Sequence record: PV435126.1
From: Escherichia phage EPFV3-03/2025
Reading direction: 5' to 3' (one strand)
DNA length: 64,000 bases
The notes below the pieces were generated by a model. The model saw only the letters and a program-made list of their open reading frames with translations. It did no database searches and was not told the origin of the DNA. Position numbers and translations under genes: made by a program. Of the stretch, positions 17,144-43,027 are shown piece by piece; the first letter of the stretch is position 1; every line of letters starts with the position of its first letter.

Positions 17144-20100
17144 ATGAGCATGTGGTCGTTCGATTTTGAGGCCTCTGGCTTGCTGGAAGACCCAGATCTT
17201 TATTATCACTGCGGTTTGTTTAAAGAGCTGAATAAGAACCGTTTTATGCTGTTCCTCCCCCTAAATGACCGCACACACTACTCTGAAGAGGATGTGGAGA
17301 AAGCTAAGAACTTCATTCTGGCAAAAAAGACCCTTTATACAGATTTTGAGGCTCGCATAGCAGATTTTTCAGAGTTGGAAGGCTGGCTTACAGGTAATTC
17401 AGATTGGTCACCTACGGCTTTGAACTGTCATAACTGCTACAGCTACGACTTTATGCTGATGGAAAGATTATCCGGTATTCATTTTGATATGTTCCGTGAT
17501 CCTAAATGCATGGGAACTATCAACGACCACCAGGTTAATCTGTTTGATACGTTAGCGATGAGTCGAATCTTGTGGCCTGACCGCCCTTTGCCAAAAGGTT
17601 GTCCGGACGCAGTATTCAATCCAGTTACCAAGAAAATGCAGCCTGTTGGGCCTCATGGCCTTATGGCATGGGGCTATGCCCTTGGTAACCAGAAAGTTCA
17701 AATCGATGACTGGCGTGAGCTTCCGCTGTGGAAGTATGTGGATCGTGTGTTCGAGGACGTTATCATTCAGGAGTTGCTCTGGAAGGAGTTGGTAGCTGAA
17801 TCAAAAGGTGTATTCTACGGCAAATCTGACATGCAGAACTTTATGTATGACCCTGCCAAAGAGAAGCCTAAAGGATTCAAGAAGATTACCTGGAAGAATG
17901 CATTACGCCGAGGCATGCTGCAGCATTTCCTGATGGAGCTGCAGGCTCGACAGGGTGTGTATTTCGACATAGATGGGGCTATTGCTTTACGTGACCGCTG
18001 CGATGCGTGGATGAAAGAGATCGCTGATCGTGTTGAACCACAACTTCCTTTAAAAGAGTTATCAATGTCTCAGCGGCCTAAGTTCCCTGAAAAGCCGTTT
18101 AACCAGGATGGGACAATCTCTAATAACGGTTGGAAATGGTTAAAAGACAAGCTTGGCTATCCTGTGGATATGGGTGCTTTAGAATTCAAAGCTCCGCCTA
18201 AGCGAGCCTTTACCTCCACAGGAGATGTCAGCAAAATGGGGATAAAATGGTGTGAAGAGATGGGCTGCAAAGACCCCGATAAGATGGCTGATTTCTTAAG
18301 GGGGTATATTAAAGGAACCTCTACACCGCACCCTTTACCTAAAGAACTAATGGATCAGGCAATAAGTGATCTGCAGCAGAAGCGGATGCCTGACTGCAAG
18401 ATACCTATGAAGATCAGCAACCAGGACGACATCAAGCGATACCTGATCAGTGCTGGTTGGCTCCCAACAATGTGGAGAACTAAGGATGTAACTAAAGACA
18501 GCAAGAAGAAAGCTTTACCTGATGCAGATGTTGATGCACGAGTATATGCATATATGGACGAGCTTTTGGAGTCAGAGTATTGTGACCTGATTATCAACTT
18601 CTGGAACAAAACTGATGCCAAGTTCCAGACAACCGTGCACAAGTTCCGAAGCTTCCCTAACTCAGAAAGGATTAAAAAGGAAGTGTTTGGGAAGATACGT
18701 AGAAAAGCCAGAGCGCTTATTACTTCTCCGCAACTGAAAGATACGTTTGGACACCTGTGCCCGAATCTTGAAAAATTGAACGGGGAGATGGCTAAAGATA
18801 TCGTTTTGTGGTTATCATTGCGAAACCGCAGATCGGTCCTTGATCCAATCAAGGAGGATAAGGTTGATACTGGTCTTCTTAATCATCCACGTTTGAAGAT
18901 TGACCATAAGCTTCCTGCTAAAAGTTCTGGATTAACAAACACTTCAAGACAGAAACACAGCATTTGTGCAAACATGCCTAAACCATCTCCTAAAGTGGTT
19001 ATGGGTAAAGAGATGCGTAGTCTGTGGGGTGTTCCTCCAGGATACTTTGAGATCGGTATTGACGGGTCTAACTTAGAGCAGCTTATTGGGGCTTGGGGTG
19101 CCTTTGAGTTTGACAACGGCCTGTATTATGATGTTGTAAGTAACGGCGATGCACACTGTTATTCAGGAGATACACAAATTCTCACGGAGAAAGGGTGGGT
19201 GAGGTTTGAAGATCTTGATCCGGGAACACAAGTGTTCCAGTACGATCACAACACCTCGTCGATGAACCTTGTTACTCCATTAAATTACGTTAAGCGTAGT
19301 TATTGTGGGGATATGTATCATTTCCACAACAGCAGTGTGGATTTTATGGTTACAGATCAACACAGGATGCTGACCGTGGATCACAGAAGCAATAAATTGT
19401 TTGAAGATTTGGCAAAAGACCTGAAAGCAGGTAAAGGGTCTAATTCAGGAAGAAGGTTTATCCATGCGGCAGAGTTTTATGGGAATACAACCTTATCTCC
19501 TGCCCAGGTTAATTTGCTTATTGCTATTCACGATGATGGGTACTTGCATACAAATAAGGACGGCAGCATCGTGTGCAGGATTCAGGCCGGGAAGGGCAGA
19601 AAAGTTGCAACGCTTTTAGATACTTTTTCTGCTCTAAGCCTTAGTTATGTAGAGCAGAGCGGGAAAACCACAAAAGGAGGCTTACTGGCGAGAAGGTTCC
19701 AATTCCACGTTCCGTCCTGGGTATTTGAGTTTTTGGACAGCAATAAGGATTTCACCTACAACCTGATGGACCTTGATAAAGAATCTAAAAACCTGTTTAT
19801 AGCTTCTTTATCTAACTGGGACGGGTGGGTATCTCCCGAAGGTGGAAAAGTTGCCTACTACTCTCAGGCCGAGTGCAGGAAGAAATCTGTAGAGGTTGTG
19901 TCTGCGCTGGCTACTCAGTGTGGTTTACGGAATAATACGGTGGCGATTCACAAAAAAGGTCGTTCCGTACAGCACAGAATCACGATTGGTAGCAAACAGA
20001 GAGCAGGGTTGCTGACACTATCTAAAGAGCCTGTCGGGGTGAGCGGTTCTTTGGTTTATTGCGTTACCGTCCCTTCTGGAGCAATCATTGTGAGAAGGAA

Positions 20101-20536
20101 TGGTAAAGTGGCAGTGTGCGGTAACTGTAATAACGCCAAAGCTTACTCTTCTGTAGCAGGCAAGGAGATTTCCCGTAACGATGGTAAGCCTGTCACGTAC
20201 GGTGTTATGTACGGGGCACAAAAAGATAAAGTTGCAGACATGCTGGATATCTCTCCAGAGTTGGGGCAAAGGGTAATCGATGCGCTTTGGGATGCCAACC
20301 CAGGTCTTAAGGGGCGTAAAGAGGATCTGGAGAAATTCTGGGAAGCAACAGGTAAGAAATTTATCTACTCTTTTGACGGTCATGCCATCTGGACCCGATC
20401 TAAACACTCTTTACTTAATGCATACCAACAGAATGGTGGTGCATCGTTGTGTGACTTAGTTGGGATACTCATGCACCACCAAATGGTGAAGCGTGGGTGG
20501 TACGATGAAGGTGTCCGTCGTATTATTTATTACCAT
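17144..20536 (+). CDS. family A DNA polymerase, exon 1 (contains intein)
   Basis: 3'-5' exo motif SFDFEASG; motif A-like DGSNLEQL...GDAH; T7-like motif B RNDGKPVTYGVMYGAQ after the intein; ORF lacks motif C unless spliced to exon 2. Confidence 0.9.
19157..20125 (+). mobile_element. intein (323 codons) with LAGLIDADG-like endonuclease motifs inside DNA polymerase
   Basis: Begins CYSGDTQIL (block A), TDQH (block B), LLIAIHDDGY and FIASLSNWDGW (LAGLIDADG-like), ends ...VYCVTV...RRNGKVAVCGN followed by Cys. Confidence 0.75.
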
Positions 20537-20812
20537 AAATAACATTGTGGCTTCATAGAGTAATCTATGTCGAATAACCTCTTTAACTGCGGGAAGCCTA
20601 AACCTTATGGCAAGGTAATCCGCAACGAAGCGCTCAAAAGAGCGAACGCTCAGAGGCCATTCCGAAAGGAAGTAGACCAGCAAGTGCGGTCGAAATGGGA
20701 GGATTCCTGTGGTTGCTTATCATAGGAATATGAGATGGTCCGATCCTACGTGAAAACGTATGGCTATGCACGTAATGGTGCGGGGTAGCTTAACGACCTA
20801 CCTGAACTATTG
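20537..20812 (+). mobile_element. group I intron (276 nt, no ORF) in DNA polymerase gene
   Basis: Starts after exon U (cat|), ends with G before gat; P-like aactgcgggaag 20585-20596, Q-like aatccgcaac 20617-20626, S-like gagatggtccga 20732-20743; splicing restores in-frame HDE motif C. Confidence 0.6.
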
Positions 20813-28805: not shown

Positions 28806-29131
28806 CAGAGATCATCATTTCAACTGCAGGATATGTATTCCTGACAATCATTGCGCTGATCATCTTGGTGGTGGTGTATGGATTTGTTATCCTGCCTATT
28901 CTTGAGACATTTAGTTTGTGTCGGTGTTGGAGAAAGGCTTACGGACCACAGCCGTGGAGAGACTGGCCCCACCTGTTACGCATAGCGTTCTCTTATGCCT
29001 ATGATCACTCCAGTAGTGCATGCATAACCGGGTATCACGCCCACAACTGGAACTGGGAAGGGCTGGGGAGATGGAGTGTTATAAAAACTATACCTCTACG
29101 CATGTACAAGCCTAAAAACAAAGATAGTTGA
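28802..29131 (+). CDS. hypothetical membrane protein (109 aa)
   Basis: N-terminal hydrophobic stretch YVFLTIIALIILVVVYGFVILPIL. Confidence 0.45.
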   Translation: MTEIIISTAGYVFLTIIALIILVVVYGFVILPILETFSLCRCWRKAYGPQPWRDWPHLLRIAFSYAYDHSSSACITGYHAHNWNWEGLGRWSVIKTIPLRMYKPKNKDS

Positions 29132-29134
29132 TAC

Positions 29135-29431
29135 TTGAAAATCCCTGGCACATCAAGTATAAGGGGGATTTCTAAAATGGATTTCCTCCTTTTGATATTT
29201 TACCTAGCCGGATATTTTAAAATTCCTAGAAAATCAGAAAATGGATCGAAAACTAAAATGGATTTTTTCAAGACAGGCACGATAAGCTGCGCTGCTCATT
29301 CTATCATTCGCACCGTACTCCAAATCACCGTTCCAGATTTTCCGCACACACTCTCGCCCTTCTACCAGAACTTTCCCAACTTACCTTCGGCCTTTTATGA
29401 CAATAAGTTAATTATTATCAGTAAGTTTTGA
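29135..29431 (+). CDS. hypothetical protein (98 aa), doubtful
   Basis: ORF-track ORF with non-ATG start; low-complexity; adjacent to repeat region. Confidence 0.25.
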   Translation: MKIPGTSSIRGISKMDFLLLIFYLAGYFKIPRKSENGSKTKMDFFKTGTISCAAHSIIRTVLQITVPDFPHTLSPFYQNFPNLPSAFYDNKLIIISKF

Positions 29432-29444
29432 TACATCTCTCTCA

Positions 29445-29625
29445 GTACTCGATCTGTTTTTCATTTCAAAGATTGGATTTTCTGAAAAATTTTCTCGATA
29501 AATTTTTCGGTACTCGATCTGTTTTTCGTTTTCTGAATCAGATTTTCTGGAAATCGTTCCGGCGCTCGACCTGAAATTTTTGGGGACGAAATCGATTTTT
29601 CGTTTTCAGAAACGGATTTTTAAAA
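29445..29625. repeat. AT-rich degenerate tandem repeats (about 65-bp unit, 3-4 copies)
   Basis: Units beginning gtactcgatctgtttttc at 29445 and 29510, degenerate copies near 29565 and 29590. Confidence 0.6.
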
Positions 29626-29734
29626 TTTCTATATGGGAATATTTTAGGAGGTATTATTTTATATAGAATTGTCACGGTAGGTAATTAGCATGCTAACTAA
29701 ATTTATGAAATGCGAAAAGTTCTCATTTAGAATT

Positions 29735-29753
29735 TTGAATGATAATCATTCTC
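29735..29753. promoter_or_regulatory. Fur-box-like site 1
   Basis: ttgaatgataatcattctc matches 15/19 of Fur consensus GATAATGATAATCATTATC. Confidence 0.3.
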
Positions 29754-29985
29754 GTTTGCAGAATAACGGGCACCCCCGGTGATTGTCTCCCGGCCCCTAC
29801 TGCCCCGGCTTGTTATTATAGTATCACACAGGACAAAGAAAGCAAGAAGTTTTTGCATAAATTTTTAGACGATAATGATAATCGTTCTCATTTCATGCAG
29901 CGCCCATCCCCGGTGGTTGTCTCCCCCGTCACCGGTGCCTGCCGTCCTTTCGATATGTATATTGTGCCACCTGGCGGGGCCGCTG
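29738..29985. repeat. two copies of an about 110-bp direct repeat (29738-29845 and 29871-29985)
   Basis: Each copy: gataatc(a/g)ttctc..gcag..ccccggtg(a/g)ttgtctccc..tat(t)at..ac. Confidence 0.6.
29871..29889. promoter_or_regulatory. Fur-box-like site 2
   Basis: gataatgataatcgttctc matches 17/19 of Fur consensus; overlaps a possible -10 downstream of TTGCAT 29854-29859. Confidence 0.35.
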
Positions 29986-30102
29986 TCAACACTTTTCAAA
30001 AAAAAAAATTCTAACCTGATGCGCTAACCGCTGCAACCTGGCGGGGCCAGCCTGGTGGGCCTACGCTATAGGATAGGCAACAATTGAAGAGGAGGTACAA
30101 AA

Positions 30103-30279
30103 ATGAAAGGTAATAGGATCCCCCTGGAAAATGTAGCTATTAATAACGCTGAGGCTATCGCCCTGGTTGAAAAGGCTATGGCGGGAGCGTTGGAACATAA
30201 AGAAGAGTACGAAAAAATGATGGTCAACCTAGCAGGGGCGGCGGCTGGAGAATTCTACCCAAAAAATAATTTTAACTAG
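30103..30279 (+). CDS. hypothetical small protein (58 aa)
   Basis: ORF below track cutoff; GAAGAGGAGG upstream of ATG 30103. Confidence 0.4.
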   Translation: MKGNRIPLENVAINNAEAIALVEKAMAGALEHKEEYEKMMVNLAGAAAGEFYPKNNFN

Positions 30280-30282
30280 TGG

Positions 30283-30311
30283 TTGACAGCTCGGACAGTT
30301 TTTGTTATTCT
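30283..30311 (+). promoter_or_regulatory. sigma70-type promoter
   Basis: -35 TTGACA 30283-30288, 17-bp spacer, -10 TATTCT 30306-30311. Confidence 0.45.
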
Positions 30312-30364
30312 TATCCTCGCAAGGTGAACAACACCACACTAATCAACAGAGAGGATAAAAAATC

Positions 30365-30562
30365 ATGAACGCCTACGGAATTAAAGTACGTCGCAGCACT
30401 CGCCAGGTGGTCACCGATCAAATGATTTGCCAGGTGGATGTGACCATCAACAACGGGCAAGGCCTTTATAAATTCCGTCGCGGTCAGAGCTATACCCGGC
30501 AACAGCTTAATCGTTGCGCCCTGACAAAAGGCCAGATCAACCACTGGTTTAATAAAAAATAA
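30365..30562 (+). CDS. hypothetical protein (65 aa)
   Basis: ORF with conserved leader agaggataaaaaatcATG. Confidence 0.5.
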   Translation: MNAYGIKVRRSTRQVVTDQMICQVDVTINNGQGLYKFRRGQSYTRQQLNRCALTKGQINHWFNKK

Positions 30563-40170: not shown

Positions 40171-40779
40171 TCTGCTCTTCCCCATACCATAAACGGCCCT
40201 ACCTGACAAGTGGAATAATTGACGAGCCATCAATCCCGCACACTGTACAAATATACATGTAAAATAGCTATTGCATAACCTTTCATTGTGTGGTAGCGGT
40301 GCTATTTTTACCCGTTTTCTCTCCCAAAATTGCACGTAATGCAGCTATTGCACAAAATTTAACCTGATGCACATCTTCAGTATACTGTCAACAATTAAAA
40401 ATCTTTATAAGTCATACACTTACACAAACCAAAAAGCGTGTCCTACGTGAAAAATCGGGTGTAACTATAGCCGACAGATCTCAGAATCCACGTACAATCA
40501 CCATTCTATAGCCTGCAAAGTATTTATTCCAACCACAGAATAACGGAATAGTCAATACTTGTATAAAATAATTATTCGTGTAAACTGCATAACATAAATC
40601 TTCTCATGTGTCAACATTTTTCGTAAACAGTCCGAAATTGTCACGATAGGTTACTATAATCAGAGAAATCTTTAGTCGTCTAATGTTTACTGTACATAAC
40701 TATACTGACTGGAATCATTAGATGACTAAGAGAAAGATAAGAAATAATTAACAATGTAATTGTTTTATCTGCAACAATA

Positions 40780-41170
40780 AGGCAACTATGCAAACGAATG
40801 GCATGGCGCGACGGAGTCGCGACATAATATAAAAGCAGTAACCATCACCCCCGTGATAGTTTGTCTGCAATCTATTAATCAGATCATAGTTGCCTTGTAT
40901 TTAGTTAATCATGACATAACAAGCAGGGCAACTATAGATCTTCTAATAGTTGCCCTGCTTTTATATTATGTCATATATTATTAACTTGTCAATTGTCACC
41001 TTGCTAATTGTTTTCATGCAAACGAATGTCATGGCTTATCATCTCTGTGTAAACTGTCAATGTGTAAACAGTCTACGCAGGAACAATCTATACGTGAACA
41101 GTGAAACATGAAATAATAACAGTCGTTATTGTGTCGAAAGTGTCGTATTGTGTGACATTGTGTCAGACAA
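40780..41170. repeat. iteron/inverted-repeat cluster in non-coding region
   Basis: GGCAACTAT motif 4 times (40782, 40887 rc, 40927, 40946 rc) incl. perfect 15-bp inverted repeat 40921-40935/40946-40960; direct repeats tgcaaacgaatgNcatggc (40790, 41015), gtgtaaacNgtc x2, TTGTGTC x4. Confidence 0.7.
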
Positions 41171-42691
41171 GTTTTTCTCCTCTTTGTCAAGTGCTGCATG
41201 GAAAATTTACAATCTGGTATGGTAGCATTTTTGCGGCCCCGTTTACATGCATGAGTGTATGTATAATCCTTGTTGTGTGGGCGTTTAGACGTCTGGACGG
41301 TCAGAAGTCCGCAGGTTAATATCTAATCTATTGGTCGCTAACTATATCCACCACAAATAATAAGAAATACAATTGTTATATTCGTAAACAGTAACCCATG
41401 TTATCAATCCCTGTATGTATCGCCAGTGGTGCGCATAATGGGTATTATGTTAAATTGCCCGTAATGATAACGATTCTCACAATGATAAGTATTCTCATTC
41501 ATCCACACAAAATAGCTTGCAAATGTTGTGCCACTGTGTGAACGGCCTCGCCTATTAATTTGCCTCACTGCCCCGATATTTGAGAATTGTTATAAGAATG
41601 AGAAGTATTCCCATTCCGTCCGCCTGGCAGCACTCCAGTCGCTACCGGCTCCTGACAGGGTAGCACTCCTGTAGGACAAGCACAAAATCTGGGCATAACT
41701 GGACCTGTTCAGATATTTCTGGCTGACTCTTCAGGTCTGTGTGGGAAAAGCCAACCTCTCCGGCGGGGCAGGGGGGGTCTGCATGGCAGATTTCACCTGG
41801 AGCGAAACCCTTAAGGGTAAGATGGGGTGGTATTACAGGAAAAATTGCAGGTCAATTAAAAAATTTACGTGGTGTATGAAGCCCTCTTCAGGCAGGGCGT
41901 GTATTATGGGATGAAACCCTCTTCAGGTGATGATATTTGTGGGTGTGATATTTGCTGGAAAGCCAGATATGACGGGGCTCCCGGCGGGGATGGGGTAGTA
42001 CAGGCAGGGAAAATGTGGGGATGTGGTGTGGTAAATTGATCAGGCAGGTAGGATATGGAATATGTTACAAGTATGTTAAATATGGAGGTAGGATATTTGT
42101 AAGATTTGTGTGTAAAATCAAATACTTATGTGGTGTTGTGGTATTTTCTATAAATAATTCAAGTTTAATAGGTGATATTTGTCTCCATCTACTTTGTGTG
42201 GTAAACAGATTCTAATTGAATTGGTTTACAAGTGTATATAAAGTATACAAATTAAAGATATAAGAAACCCCCCTCCCCCCTTCGGCTACCATTCACCTTT
42301 TCCTCTGACTGGTACTTAAACACTTATTCAGACTCTTCAGGTTATCACCCATATATCATATGGCAGTGACTGGTGTCCTCCGGCCCCTCTTTCGTCACCC
42401 GTCCGCTTCGCCATGCTAATGCCATAGCTAACTGTTCGGTTGTTCACCCTGTTCACTCAGGTGTATCTCCATACCCCTTCAAACCGAAGAGAACAGAAAA
42501 CCCGAATTACTCGGTAAAAGAAAAGAGAAGAACTTAATTTTATCAGGATAGGCAAGAATGTCAAGGCATGACTGCTCACTAAACAAGCAAACAGTCATGT
42601 GTGGGAGGTAAGTGATTGTGGTGGTAGGAAATTTAGTTGAAAGATGTGTTATAGGTGCTTCCAGCACTTTAGCCTGGCAGCTAATTGTGTG

Positions 42692-42907
42692 TCAGTCCAG
42701 CGGTTCATCCTCTACTTCACTGAAATCAATGTTCATGGTCTCTTCCCAACCATCGATCTCAGCACAAGAGTGGAGTTCTTTAGGGTTTACTCCCAAAGCC
42801 TCAGCAACAGAGTCTATATTTAACACCTCTGGCAGGTATGATTCATCGAATTCAAGGTAAATCAGGCCACGAGTGTTGTCAGCTCCACCAAATATTTCTA
42901 TCTTCAT
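42692..42907 (-). CDS. hypothetical acidic protein (71 aa)
   Basis: Last ORF of minus-strand block. Confidence 0.4.
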   Translation of the reverse strand: MKIEIFGGADNTRGLIYLEFDESYLPEVLNIDSVAEALGVNPKELHSCAEIDGWEETMNIDFSEVEDEPLD

Positions 42908-43027
42908 AAAATCTCCTCTGGGAATGAGAGTGTGAACAGGATTATACGTTCCAATGCACTGGAATTTATATACGTTTGCCTCTTCAGGCCATGCTTTAGC
43001 ATGATAAACTTGTGTGGGCTCGGTGCT

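Follow-up and report, generated by a model that had tools for sequence, protein, structure and literature searches.

Genomic setting and features of the locus

The window analysed here is a stretch of 64,000 nucleotides from Escherichia phage EPFV3-03/2025, in which the genes are read to the right between about 3.4 and 40.1 kb and to the left between 43 and 64 kb. The region 29300-30400 finds matches in 121 phage records at 80-99% identity, and since the closest of these are Escherichia phages VB-EcoM-WM and FV3, the window can be assigned to an rV5-like phage of the genus Vequintavirus. The two sites that are the subject of this work lie inside a 970-bp gap (29131-30103), flanked by small rightward early genes of unknown function.

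An earlier note on this DNA, made from the letters alone, had reported that the gap holds two sites resembling the classical 19-bp consensus of the iron regulator Fur. Both matches were reproduced: 15 of 19 positions agree at 29735-29753 (TTGAATGATAATCATTCTC against GATAATGATAATCATTATC) and 17 of 19 at 29871-29889 (GATAATGATAATCGTTCTC against the same consensus), the latter being the top match of the window, where only three positions reach at least 15/19. The note had also described the sites as heading the two copies of a direct repeat. A significant tandem duplication is indeed present, but with a period of 131-136 bp and not of 110 bp. Copy 1 (29707-29829) and copy 2 (29838-29970) are 66% identical in a gapped alignment that scores 79, against 20.7 +/- 4.0 and a maximum of 47 for 500 shuffles. 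Two blocks are kept best between them, each at 90% identity: 20 nt at the box, and 21 nt at the GC-rich core CAYCCCCGGTGRTTGTCTCCC, which is common to both copies as had been claimed. The possible -10 that the second site was said to overlap could likewise be located, as TTGCAT (29853-29858) followed after 18 nt by GATAAT (29877-29882). The features of the module are as follows.

29435-29620: a direct repeat of about 65 bp in three copies, GTACTCGATCTGTTTTTCGTTTTC...GATTTTCTG; upstream portion of the conserved module, non-coding
29709-29727: degenerate palindrome AATGCGAAAAGTTCTCATT, distal to the proximal box and 29 bp upstream of it
29732-29750: partner of the proximal box, offset by 6 bp
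29735-29764, plus strand: putative sigma-70-type promoter, TTGAAT (29735-29740), 18 nt, CAGAAT (29759-29764), with the box as its spacer
29738-29756: proximal Fur-type box of copy 1, AATGATAATCATTCTCGTT, which is the first reported site moved by 3 into the 9-1-9 frame
29768-29795: GC-rich core of copy 1, GGGCACCCCCGGTGATTGTCTCCCGGCC, kept across genera as GGGCA-N5-GGTG-WTT-GTCTC
29815-29845, minus strand: putative promoter of copy 1, TTGCTT (29840-29845), 16 nt, TACTAT (29818-29823)
29853-29892, plus strand: TTGCAT of copy 2 and the overlapping boxes 29868-29886 and 29874-29892 (AATGATAATCGTTCTCATT)
29905-29925: GC-rich core of copy 2, CATCCCCGGTGGTTGTCTCCC, 90% identical to that of copy 1
29961-29989, minus strand: sigma-70-like promoter of copy 2, TTGACA, 17 nt, CACAAT, with TG before the -10 (10/12 matches)

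Each of the three upstream repeats has a CTCGATC core, a weak plus-strand hairpin and then a T-run, and a terminator-like site (29577-29612, plus strand) falls within them. One possibility is that they act in tandem to terminate transcription of the upstream genes, another that a protein binds them. Mydovirus, Certrevirus and Seunavirus have homologous triplets, which are rich in GATC.

Two further observations concern the surroundings. A group I intron (Rfam RF00028, 64.7 bits) is placed at 20527-20762, directly after a long plus-strand ORF (17144-20542). Just 3' of the element, the 58-aa ORF at 30103-30279 (phrog_21957) shows several 1-2-nt indels among relatives, many of them in A-runs, so that it is either often misassembled or not under strict coding constraint.

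Conservation in rV5-like and related phages

The segment 29690-29860 is nearly invariant in 10 of the 11 Vequintavirus genomes and is better conserved than the flanking genes. The eleventh genome, that of phage AlexBoehm, carries a single hybrid copy fused within the GC-rich cores (L136:1216-1290 against window 29782-29916), about 134 bp having been deleted between the two cores, with the core of copy 2 as the recombination point. This hybrid indicates that the duplication in Vequintavirus is lineage-specific and can collapse by recombination. The twin layout is, in fact, particular to Vequintavirus, the other genera having one unit.

A blastn search with 29706-29793 reached Mydovirus, Certrevirus and Seunavirus and, in another subfamily, Phapecoctavirus. 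Beyond Vequintavirus this module carries the arrays in five groups: Mydovirus, Certrevirus, Seunavirus and the unplaced phage SSBI34, which belong to the same subfamily, and Phapecoctavirus (Stephanstirmvirinae). In these relatives the module is a non-coding stretch of about 900 bp with a common layout, in the order three repeats of about 70 bp, one to seven palindromes, TTTGCAGAAT, the core GGGCA-N5-GGTG-WTT-GTCTC and a leftward sigma-70-type promoter. The pitch of the palindromes is mostly 29 bp from start to start and their number differs by genus, PVP-SE1 having one. The small ORFs that adjoin the element vary by genus too (DUF7170, phrog_19316, phrog_33408) and there is none in Vequintavirus; considered as candidate regulators, they showed only domains of unknown function. 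An IMG/VR search with the neighbouring protein retrieved 2 loci only, and a 16-mer search was too unspecific.

Since one record labels the homologous stretch as tRNA-Met, a tRNA origin was considered and rejected: ARAGORN finds no tRNA there or in the window, and the label is thus spurious. More generally, the annotations placed over the homologous element at L003:1504-1657 (OY978796) and L004:12-91 (PQ002170) look spurious, the labels 'tRNA-Met' and 'tRNA-Ile' being unconfirmed by ARAGORN. An 'attL' repeat is likewise labelled there in a lytic phage which, though PVP-SE1-like, is filed under Demerecviridae.

The palindrome and its resemblance to Fur operators

The real unit is a 19-bp 9-1-9 palindrome, AATGA(G/T)AATnATT(C/A)TCATT, whose frame is that of a single-dimer Fur site in E. 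coli as defined by Chen et al. (PMC2189734) and also that of the 19-bp Vibrio Fur box AATGATAATAATTATCATT (PMC7536154). A loose motif search of the window places copies at 29709, 29738, 29874, 41463, 41481 and 41597. The matrix built from 36 instances in six genus-level groups reads AATGA[G22/T14]AAT n ATT[C31/A4]TCATT, position 6 being G in 22 and T in 14 of the sites and position 14 being C in 31 of the 36; the remaining positions are nearly invariant. All strongly constrained positions agree with the Fur consensus, and the sole deviating one, position 6/14, is the least constrained. The half-site favoured by the phages, GAGAAT/ATTCTC, is also found in the classical operators iucA, fhuA, fepB and yeiT.

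A second matrix was made from 12 natural E. coli operators and contains no phage sequence. Nine of these are K-12 operators, recovered where Table 4 of PMC2189734 places them, each no more than 1 bp from the expected centre and in the 9-1-9 frame. The other three are fepB, fepA-fes and aerobactin iucA; the iucA sequence used is 100% identical in 641 plasmids. Scored by leave-one-out, the E. coli operators give 15.8-24.0 bits.

The palindromes near 41.5 kb form a second locus with these features (scores from the E. coli Fur matrix):

41463-41499: two abutting boxes, AATGATAACGATTCTCACA (17.8 bits) and AATGATAAGTATTCTCATT (22.6 bits, at 41481)
41597-41615: third box, AATGAGAAGTATTCCCATT (16.1 bits)

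The first pair is conserved in rV5 and APECc02 and the third box is identical in both. This locus is situated within a 2.7-kb, ORF-poor non-coding region (40200-43000) between convergent gene blocks, which corresponds to the 'non-coding' box drawn between ORF163 and ORF164 in the rV5 paper. Some blocks of this region, 42300-42900 for instance, reach 96-100% identity in a comparison of three genomes, which is above the level of coding DNA.

With the same matrix the boxes of the twin element score 23.9 (29738), 22.8 (29874) and 17.7 bits (29868). Together with the three boxes at 41.5 kb these are the top six matches in the window, the seventh reaching 14.7 bits, and with 16.1-23.9 bits they attain the level of proven operators. 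The distal palindrome at 29709-29727 is more degenerate, with 13.2 bits here and 19.9 bits in the phage matrix from the other genera, while the proximal boxes of other genera give 24-27.6 bits with the E. coli matrix. Counted as mismatches to AATGATAATnATTATCATT, the window copies range from 2 (29738, 29874, 41481) up to 5 (29709), and the recovered K-12 operators from 1 to 5. The box at 29738, which is invariant in the 11 Vequintavirus genomes, shares 17 of 19 positions with the E. coli fhuA operator TATAATAATCATTCTCGTT.

Clusters of Fur sites typically have partner sites offset by 6 bp (PMC2189734). Such partners are present at 29732/29738 and 29868/29874, and likewise in Mydovirus, Phapecoctavirus, Certrevirus and the T5-like phage SP01. 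We also scanned 139 kb, consisting of the window and the rest of the nearest relative's genome, with a matrix trained on the other genera only. Six sites scored 17-27 bits and all others at most 11.3, shuffled sequences reaching up to 14.4 bits; all six are confined to the two non-coding loci. A derivation of the element from a host promoter was tried and rejected, as a blastn search of 5,426 E. coli genomes with 29700-29830 gave nothing significant.

The 9-1-9 frame, operator-level scores, 6-bp partners and conservation across phages of Enterobacterales thus make the boxes look like Fur sites more strongly than the original 19-mer match did by itself.

Arrays in T5-like phages and other viral contigs

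Scanning IMG/VR for the exact palindrome gave at least 120 loci; 112 loci were scored among the matches listed, and many of them have several sites of at least 17 bits. In the T5-like Salmonella phage SP01 (Tequintavirus) at least 6 boxes follow each other at a pitch of 29-35 bp, and in the E. coli matrix they score as high as 27.6 bits. They occupy a non-coding part of the terminal repeat region (L170:4860-5075; also L246:480-700) that is common to 451 T5-like records. Each box is followed by TTTAAAAAGCGG, and the array adjoins the DnaA-like boxes TTATCCCCA and TTATCAACA. The T5 literature examined speaks of palindromes, repeats and DnaA boxes in such regions, not of Fur sites (10.1101/866236), and no description of Fur boxes in rV5-like or T5-like phages was found in the literature searched.

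Dense arrays were also seen in other viral contigs, scored with the matrix from E. coli. IMGVR_UViG_3300026512_000013 (L012:2200-2750), which is very AT-rich (21% G+C), has 14 sites of at least 17 bits in 600 bp, and the contigs L197, L006, L171 and L028 have arrays of 5-7 sites.

Putative promoters of the module

The hexamers TTGAAT and CAGAAT, 18 nt apart, surround the proximal box in 8 of the 11 units from other genera and in 9 of the 13 aligned rows that include copy 1 of the window. The spacer between -35 and -10 is the classical position of a Fur operator, and because the proximal box sits between these hexamers at this spacing in most genera, an iron-responsive promoter at the box is plausible. 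This putative rightward promoter agrees with the consensus at 8/12 positions, which is under the threshold of the promoter scan; its -35 is lost in Phapecoctavirus and SSBI34, and in copy 2 of the window the equivalents of both hexamers are lost.

On the opposite strand the promoter of the other genera consists of TTGCAA or TTGATC, 16-17 nt, and TATATT or TATTAT, the hexamers being kept while the spacer varies freely. The putative leftward promoter of copy 1 is the positional homologue of the one found in all other genera.

Two elements of the other genera are absent from the window. The first, TCTTTACAnnTCTTTAC, lies directly upstream of the leftward promoter in all eleven non-Vequintavirus units (L003:1628-1650, L126:1331-1352, L127:1330-1352, L128, L129 and L005). 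On the promoter strand it reads GTAAA-N5-GTAAA, which we take to be the consensus of the envelope-stress regulator CpxR. The second, CTACCGGCGATCCACCTTCCGACC...TACGTTAGCCCCGCCTTTTCGCCGTGGGGTGGCG, is a GC-rich block that is strongly conserved and has a leftward sigma-70-like promoter on either side; it is found in Seunavirus, Certrevirus, Mydovirus and Phapecoctavirus (L127:1377-1470, L128:1352-1445, L126:1379-1475 and homologues). It is a candidate for a leftward small RNA; it gave no Rfam match and its consensus folding is weak.

A probable Fur-type control module and the alternatives

We lean towards the reading that the twin sites are conserved Fur-operator-type palindromes of 19 bp in a non-coding control module of the early region, with promoters that would be governed by Fur. 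What was found is best described as follows: a conserved control module of the early region carries Fur-type operator arrays, and in this lineage one of its units has been duplicated. Two parts of the earlier interpretation, the Fur-box reading and the non-coding nature of the stretch, survive in this description; its small RNA pair finds no support.

From the arrangement of boxes and promoters we infer how the module could work, that is, the binder, the firing of the promoters and the direction of the regulation. Iron-loaded Fur dimers would occupy the boxes, and Fur on the proximal box, in the spacer between TTGAAT and CAGAAT, would shut the rightward promoter and with it transcription into the small early genes that follow. 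The leftward promoters aim through the core into the box array, so that a bound protein, about 70 nt downstream of the facing promoter, could block leftward transcripts as well. Low iron would free both promoters. The tandem duplication of the unit in Vequintavirus would then account for its twin look. The presence of Fur-like sites in early regions of several unrelated lytic phages suggests that these phages read or manipulate the iron-sensing system of the host.

The main argument for a host protein is that the boxes occur in three virulent groups, the rV5-like, phAPEC8-like and T5-like phages. As these groups share few genes and their hosts belong to one order, the Enterobacterales, the host factor Fur is favoured over a phage-specific repressor. 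Against Fur it can be said that its clusters do not usually consist of separate boxes phased at 29 bp, that the rightward promoter is weak by consensus, with a -35 not kept in every group, and that the downstream genes have no known iron link.

That the palindromes are operators of a dimeric protein encoded by the phage itself is possible, though on the unlikely side. The half-site AATGAGAAT would then be merely Fur-like, and the facing promoters would form an early/middle switch independent of iron. The base preference at positions +/-4 leaves room for such a related but different protein, since G or C stands there in 53 of 72 phage half-sites (74%) against 4 of 24 (17%) in the 12 E. coli operators. 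A regular 29-bp phasing is also typical of dedicated repressor arrays, and at least one helix-turn-helix protein without a known target is encoded by the phage, which counts against Fur as well. On the other side, the motif is identical in groups with few proteins in common, T5-like phages included; rV5-like and phAPEC8-like phages have about 18% of their proteins in common (PMC6969025). T at position 6 in 39% of the sites means that G is not required, no candidate protein is linked to the locus, and the adjoining small ORFs differ between genera.

A small RNA pair had been proposed earlier as one product of the region. We consider it improbable that the region encodes one or two small RNAs, running rightward from the boxes or leftward through the core, with the boxes controlling or terminating them. 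The position of the leftward promoter is conserved in all genera and that of copy 2 reaches 10/12, and minus-strand folds are slightly more stable than shuffles (z-scores -0.8 to -1.8). Plus-strand folds do no better than shuffles (+1.5 to -0.8), neither set of z-scores leaves the range of noise, no Rfam family matches the element at gathering or permissive thresholds, and RNAalifold, given 12 units from 6 genus-level groups, finds no consensus helix on either strand, its energy being just -3 to -4 kcal/mol with an unfavourable covariation term. No intrinsic terminator was found 3' of either GC-rich core, and the core is conserved as sequence rather than as base pairs. The conserved structure and terminator that mark a Fur-repressed small RNA of the RyhB type are thus both lacking here.

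Less probable again is a replication origin or other nucleoprotein assembly site, in which the palindromes would act as iterons of the lambda type and the promoter would serve transcriptional activation. Fixed-pitch arrays of 19-bp palindromes do adjoin three longer repeats and AAAAATTTTT tracts, the second cluster falls within the 2.7-kb non-coding stretch for which a change of skew is noted in the rV5 paper, and the T5-like arrays adjoin DnaA-like boxes (10.1101/866236). Yet no initiator gene is adjacent, the rV5 authors ascribed the skew changes to the direction of transcription, and the T5 origins are near the genome centre and not in the terminal repeat (10.1101/866236). PVP-SE1, moreover, has a single box, too few for an iteron array. 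Clustering of GATC (Dam/SeqA) was tried as a hint of an origin and dropped, since the window repeats, with 2 copies in 300 bp, are not enriched over the overall density of 5.3 per kb.

It is very improbable that the stretch encodes a 91-aa protein (FV3 ORF182, phrog_14993) and that the repeats are incidental to it. The frame is open in 8 of the 11 genomes, it is annotated in some records and it matches phrog_14993, a family that is itself derived from the same annotations; between records the annotation is inconsistent. In three of the 11 genomes compared the ORF (29739-30014) is reduced to 7, 14 and 27 aa, and a fourth has it frameshifted; its C-terminal ends are variable, and its variable columns fall on the three codon positions as 11/14/16, with no excess at the third. 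A coding gene would keep its frame among relatives and vary at third positions; here the frame is broken in 4 of 11. In the other genera the DNA of the stretch is conserved, yet without a conserved ORF. The statement of the earlier note that the stretch is non-coding is borne out.

That the likeness to Fur is a chance product of AT-rich non-coding DNA, which the earlier note had allowed for and which the AT-richness of both the region and the classical 19-mer might suggest, has next to no probability and is refuted by conservation and by the shuffle controls, since the loose motif gives 13 strand-hits against 0.95 expected from dinucleotide shuffles, the observed 17-27 bits exceed the shuffle maximum of 14.4, and the boxes are invariant across genomes while their flanks vary.

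Possible role and comparison with known systems

If the Fur-operator reading is accepted, a wider proposal can be made, which we put forward tentatively and think rather unlikely as it stands: Fur-box arrays might be a device common to unrelated virulent phages of Enterobacterales that titrates Fur in trans or reads host iron status for early expression. To our knowledge, phage DNA has so far been seen to carry Fur boxes only singly, before cargo genes of temperate phages. Hundreds of genome copies with about 6-14 dimer sites each could soak up the Fur of the cell, the principle on which the laboratory Fur titration assay also rests. Host iron-uptake genes and the Fur-repressed nucleotide-reductase genes would be derepressed, providing iron for the iron-dependent ribonucleotide reductase of the phage. 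Alternatively, Fur occupancy could be a direct read-out of host iron status that sets early gene expression.

Should Fur bind the arrays, then therapeutic and model coliphages (rV5-, phAPEC8- and T5-like) would couple their early programme to host iron or titrate Fur. Such coupling would matter for how well phages work in vivo, because the gut and infected tissue offer little iron. The palindrome regions conserved in T5, which have long been puzzling, and the 'non-coding' box of rV5 would gain a function as well.

Among known systems, the E. coli Fur operators (fhuA, iucA, entC, fepB, ryhB) resemble the phage boxes closely. They too are 19-bp 9-1-9 repeats of the type AATGATAATnATTATCATT, with overlapping partners at a 6-bp offset, and they lie across -35 and -10 hexamers. 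The phage boxes differ in that they are candidate sites by sequence, found in a strictly lytic phage beside genes without known iron function, separated at a 29-bp pitch and with G/C preferred at +/-4.

Temperate and cryptic prophages provide further cases of a host Fur site on phage DNA, namely nohA/nohB beside cos in Qin and DLP12, sitABCD of lambdoid phages, and stx1. These are single sites for cargo or late-region genes of temperate phages, whereas here we deal with multi-box arrays in an early-region module of virulent phages. The near-perfect Fur box of DLP12, GATGATAATTATTATCATT, was recovered in K-12 (L145:593-611) upstream of nohD and just before lambda-type cosQ/cosN. In position it matches nohB, which Chen et al. 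2007 list in their Table 4 as a strong cluster and whose counterpart in Qin, nohA, they gel-shifted (PMC2189734); a Fur box of the sit operon has also been reported (PMC6969025). Homology of our element with the cos-proximal region of lambda and DLP12, where a box is followed by GGG..CCGGTGAT, was tried and rejected, as the alignment scores outside the box are within the range of shuffles.

The left terminal repeat of T5 with its Repeat Regions 1 and 2 (Wang 2005; Davison, 10.1101/866236) is, like the rV5-type module, a conserved palindrome-rich non-coding block in the DNA that is expressed first. Its flank TTTAAAAAGCGG and its genomic context are different.

Finally, the layout of the module recalls the face-to-face promoter switches of temperate phages, such as pR/pL of coliphage 186 and Pe/Pc of P2. 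In both there are two convergent sigma-70 promoters, putative in our case, about 60-70 bp apart and with operators on one side. Unlike those switches, the rV5-type module has no repressor or immunity gene and is not associated with lysogeny.
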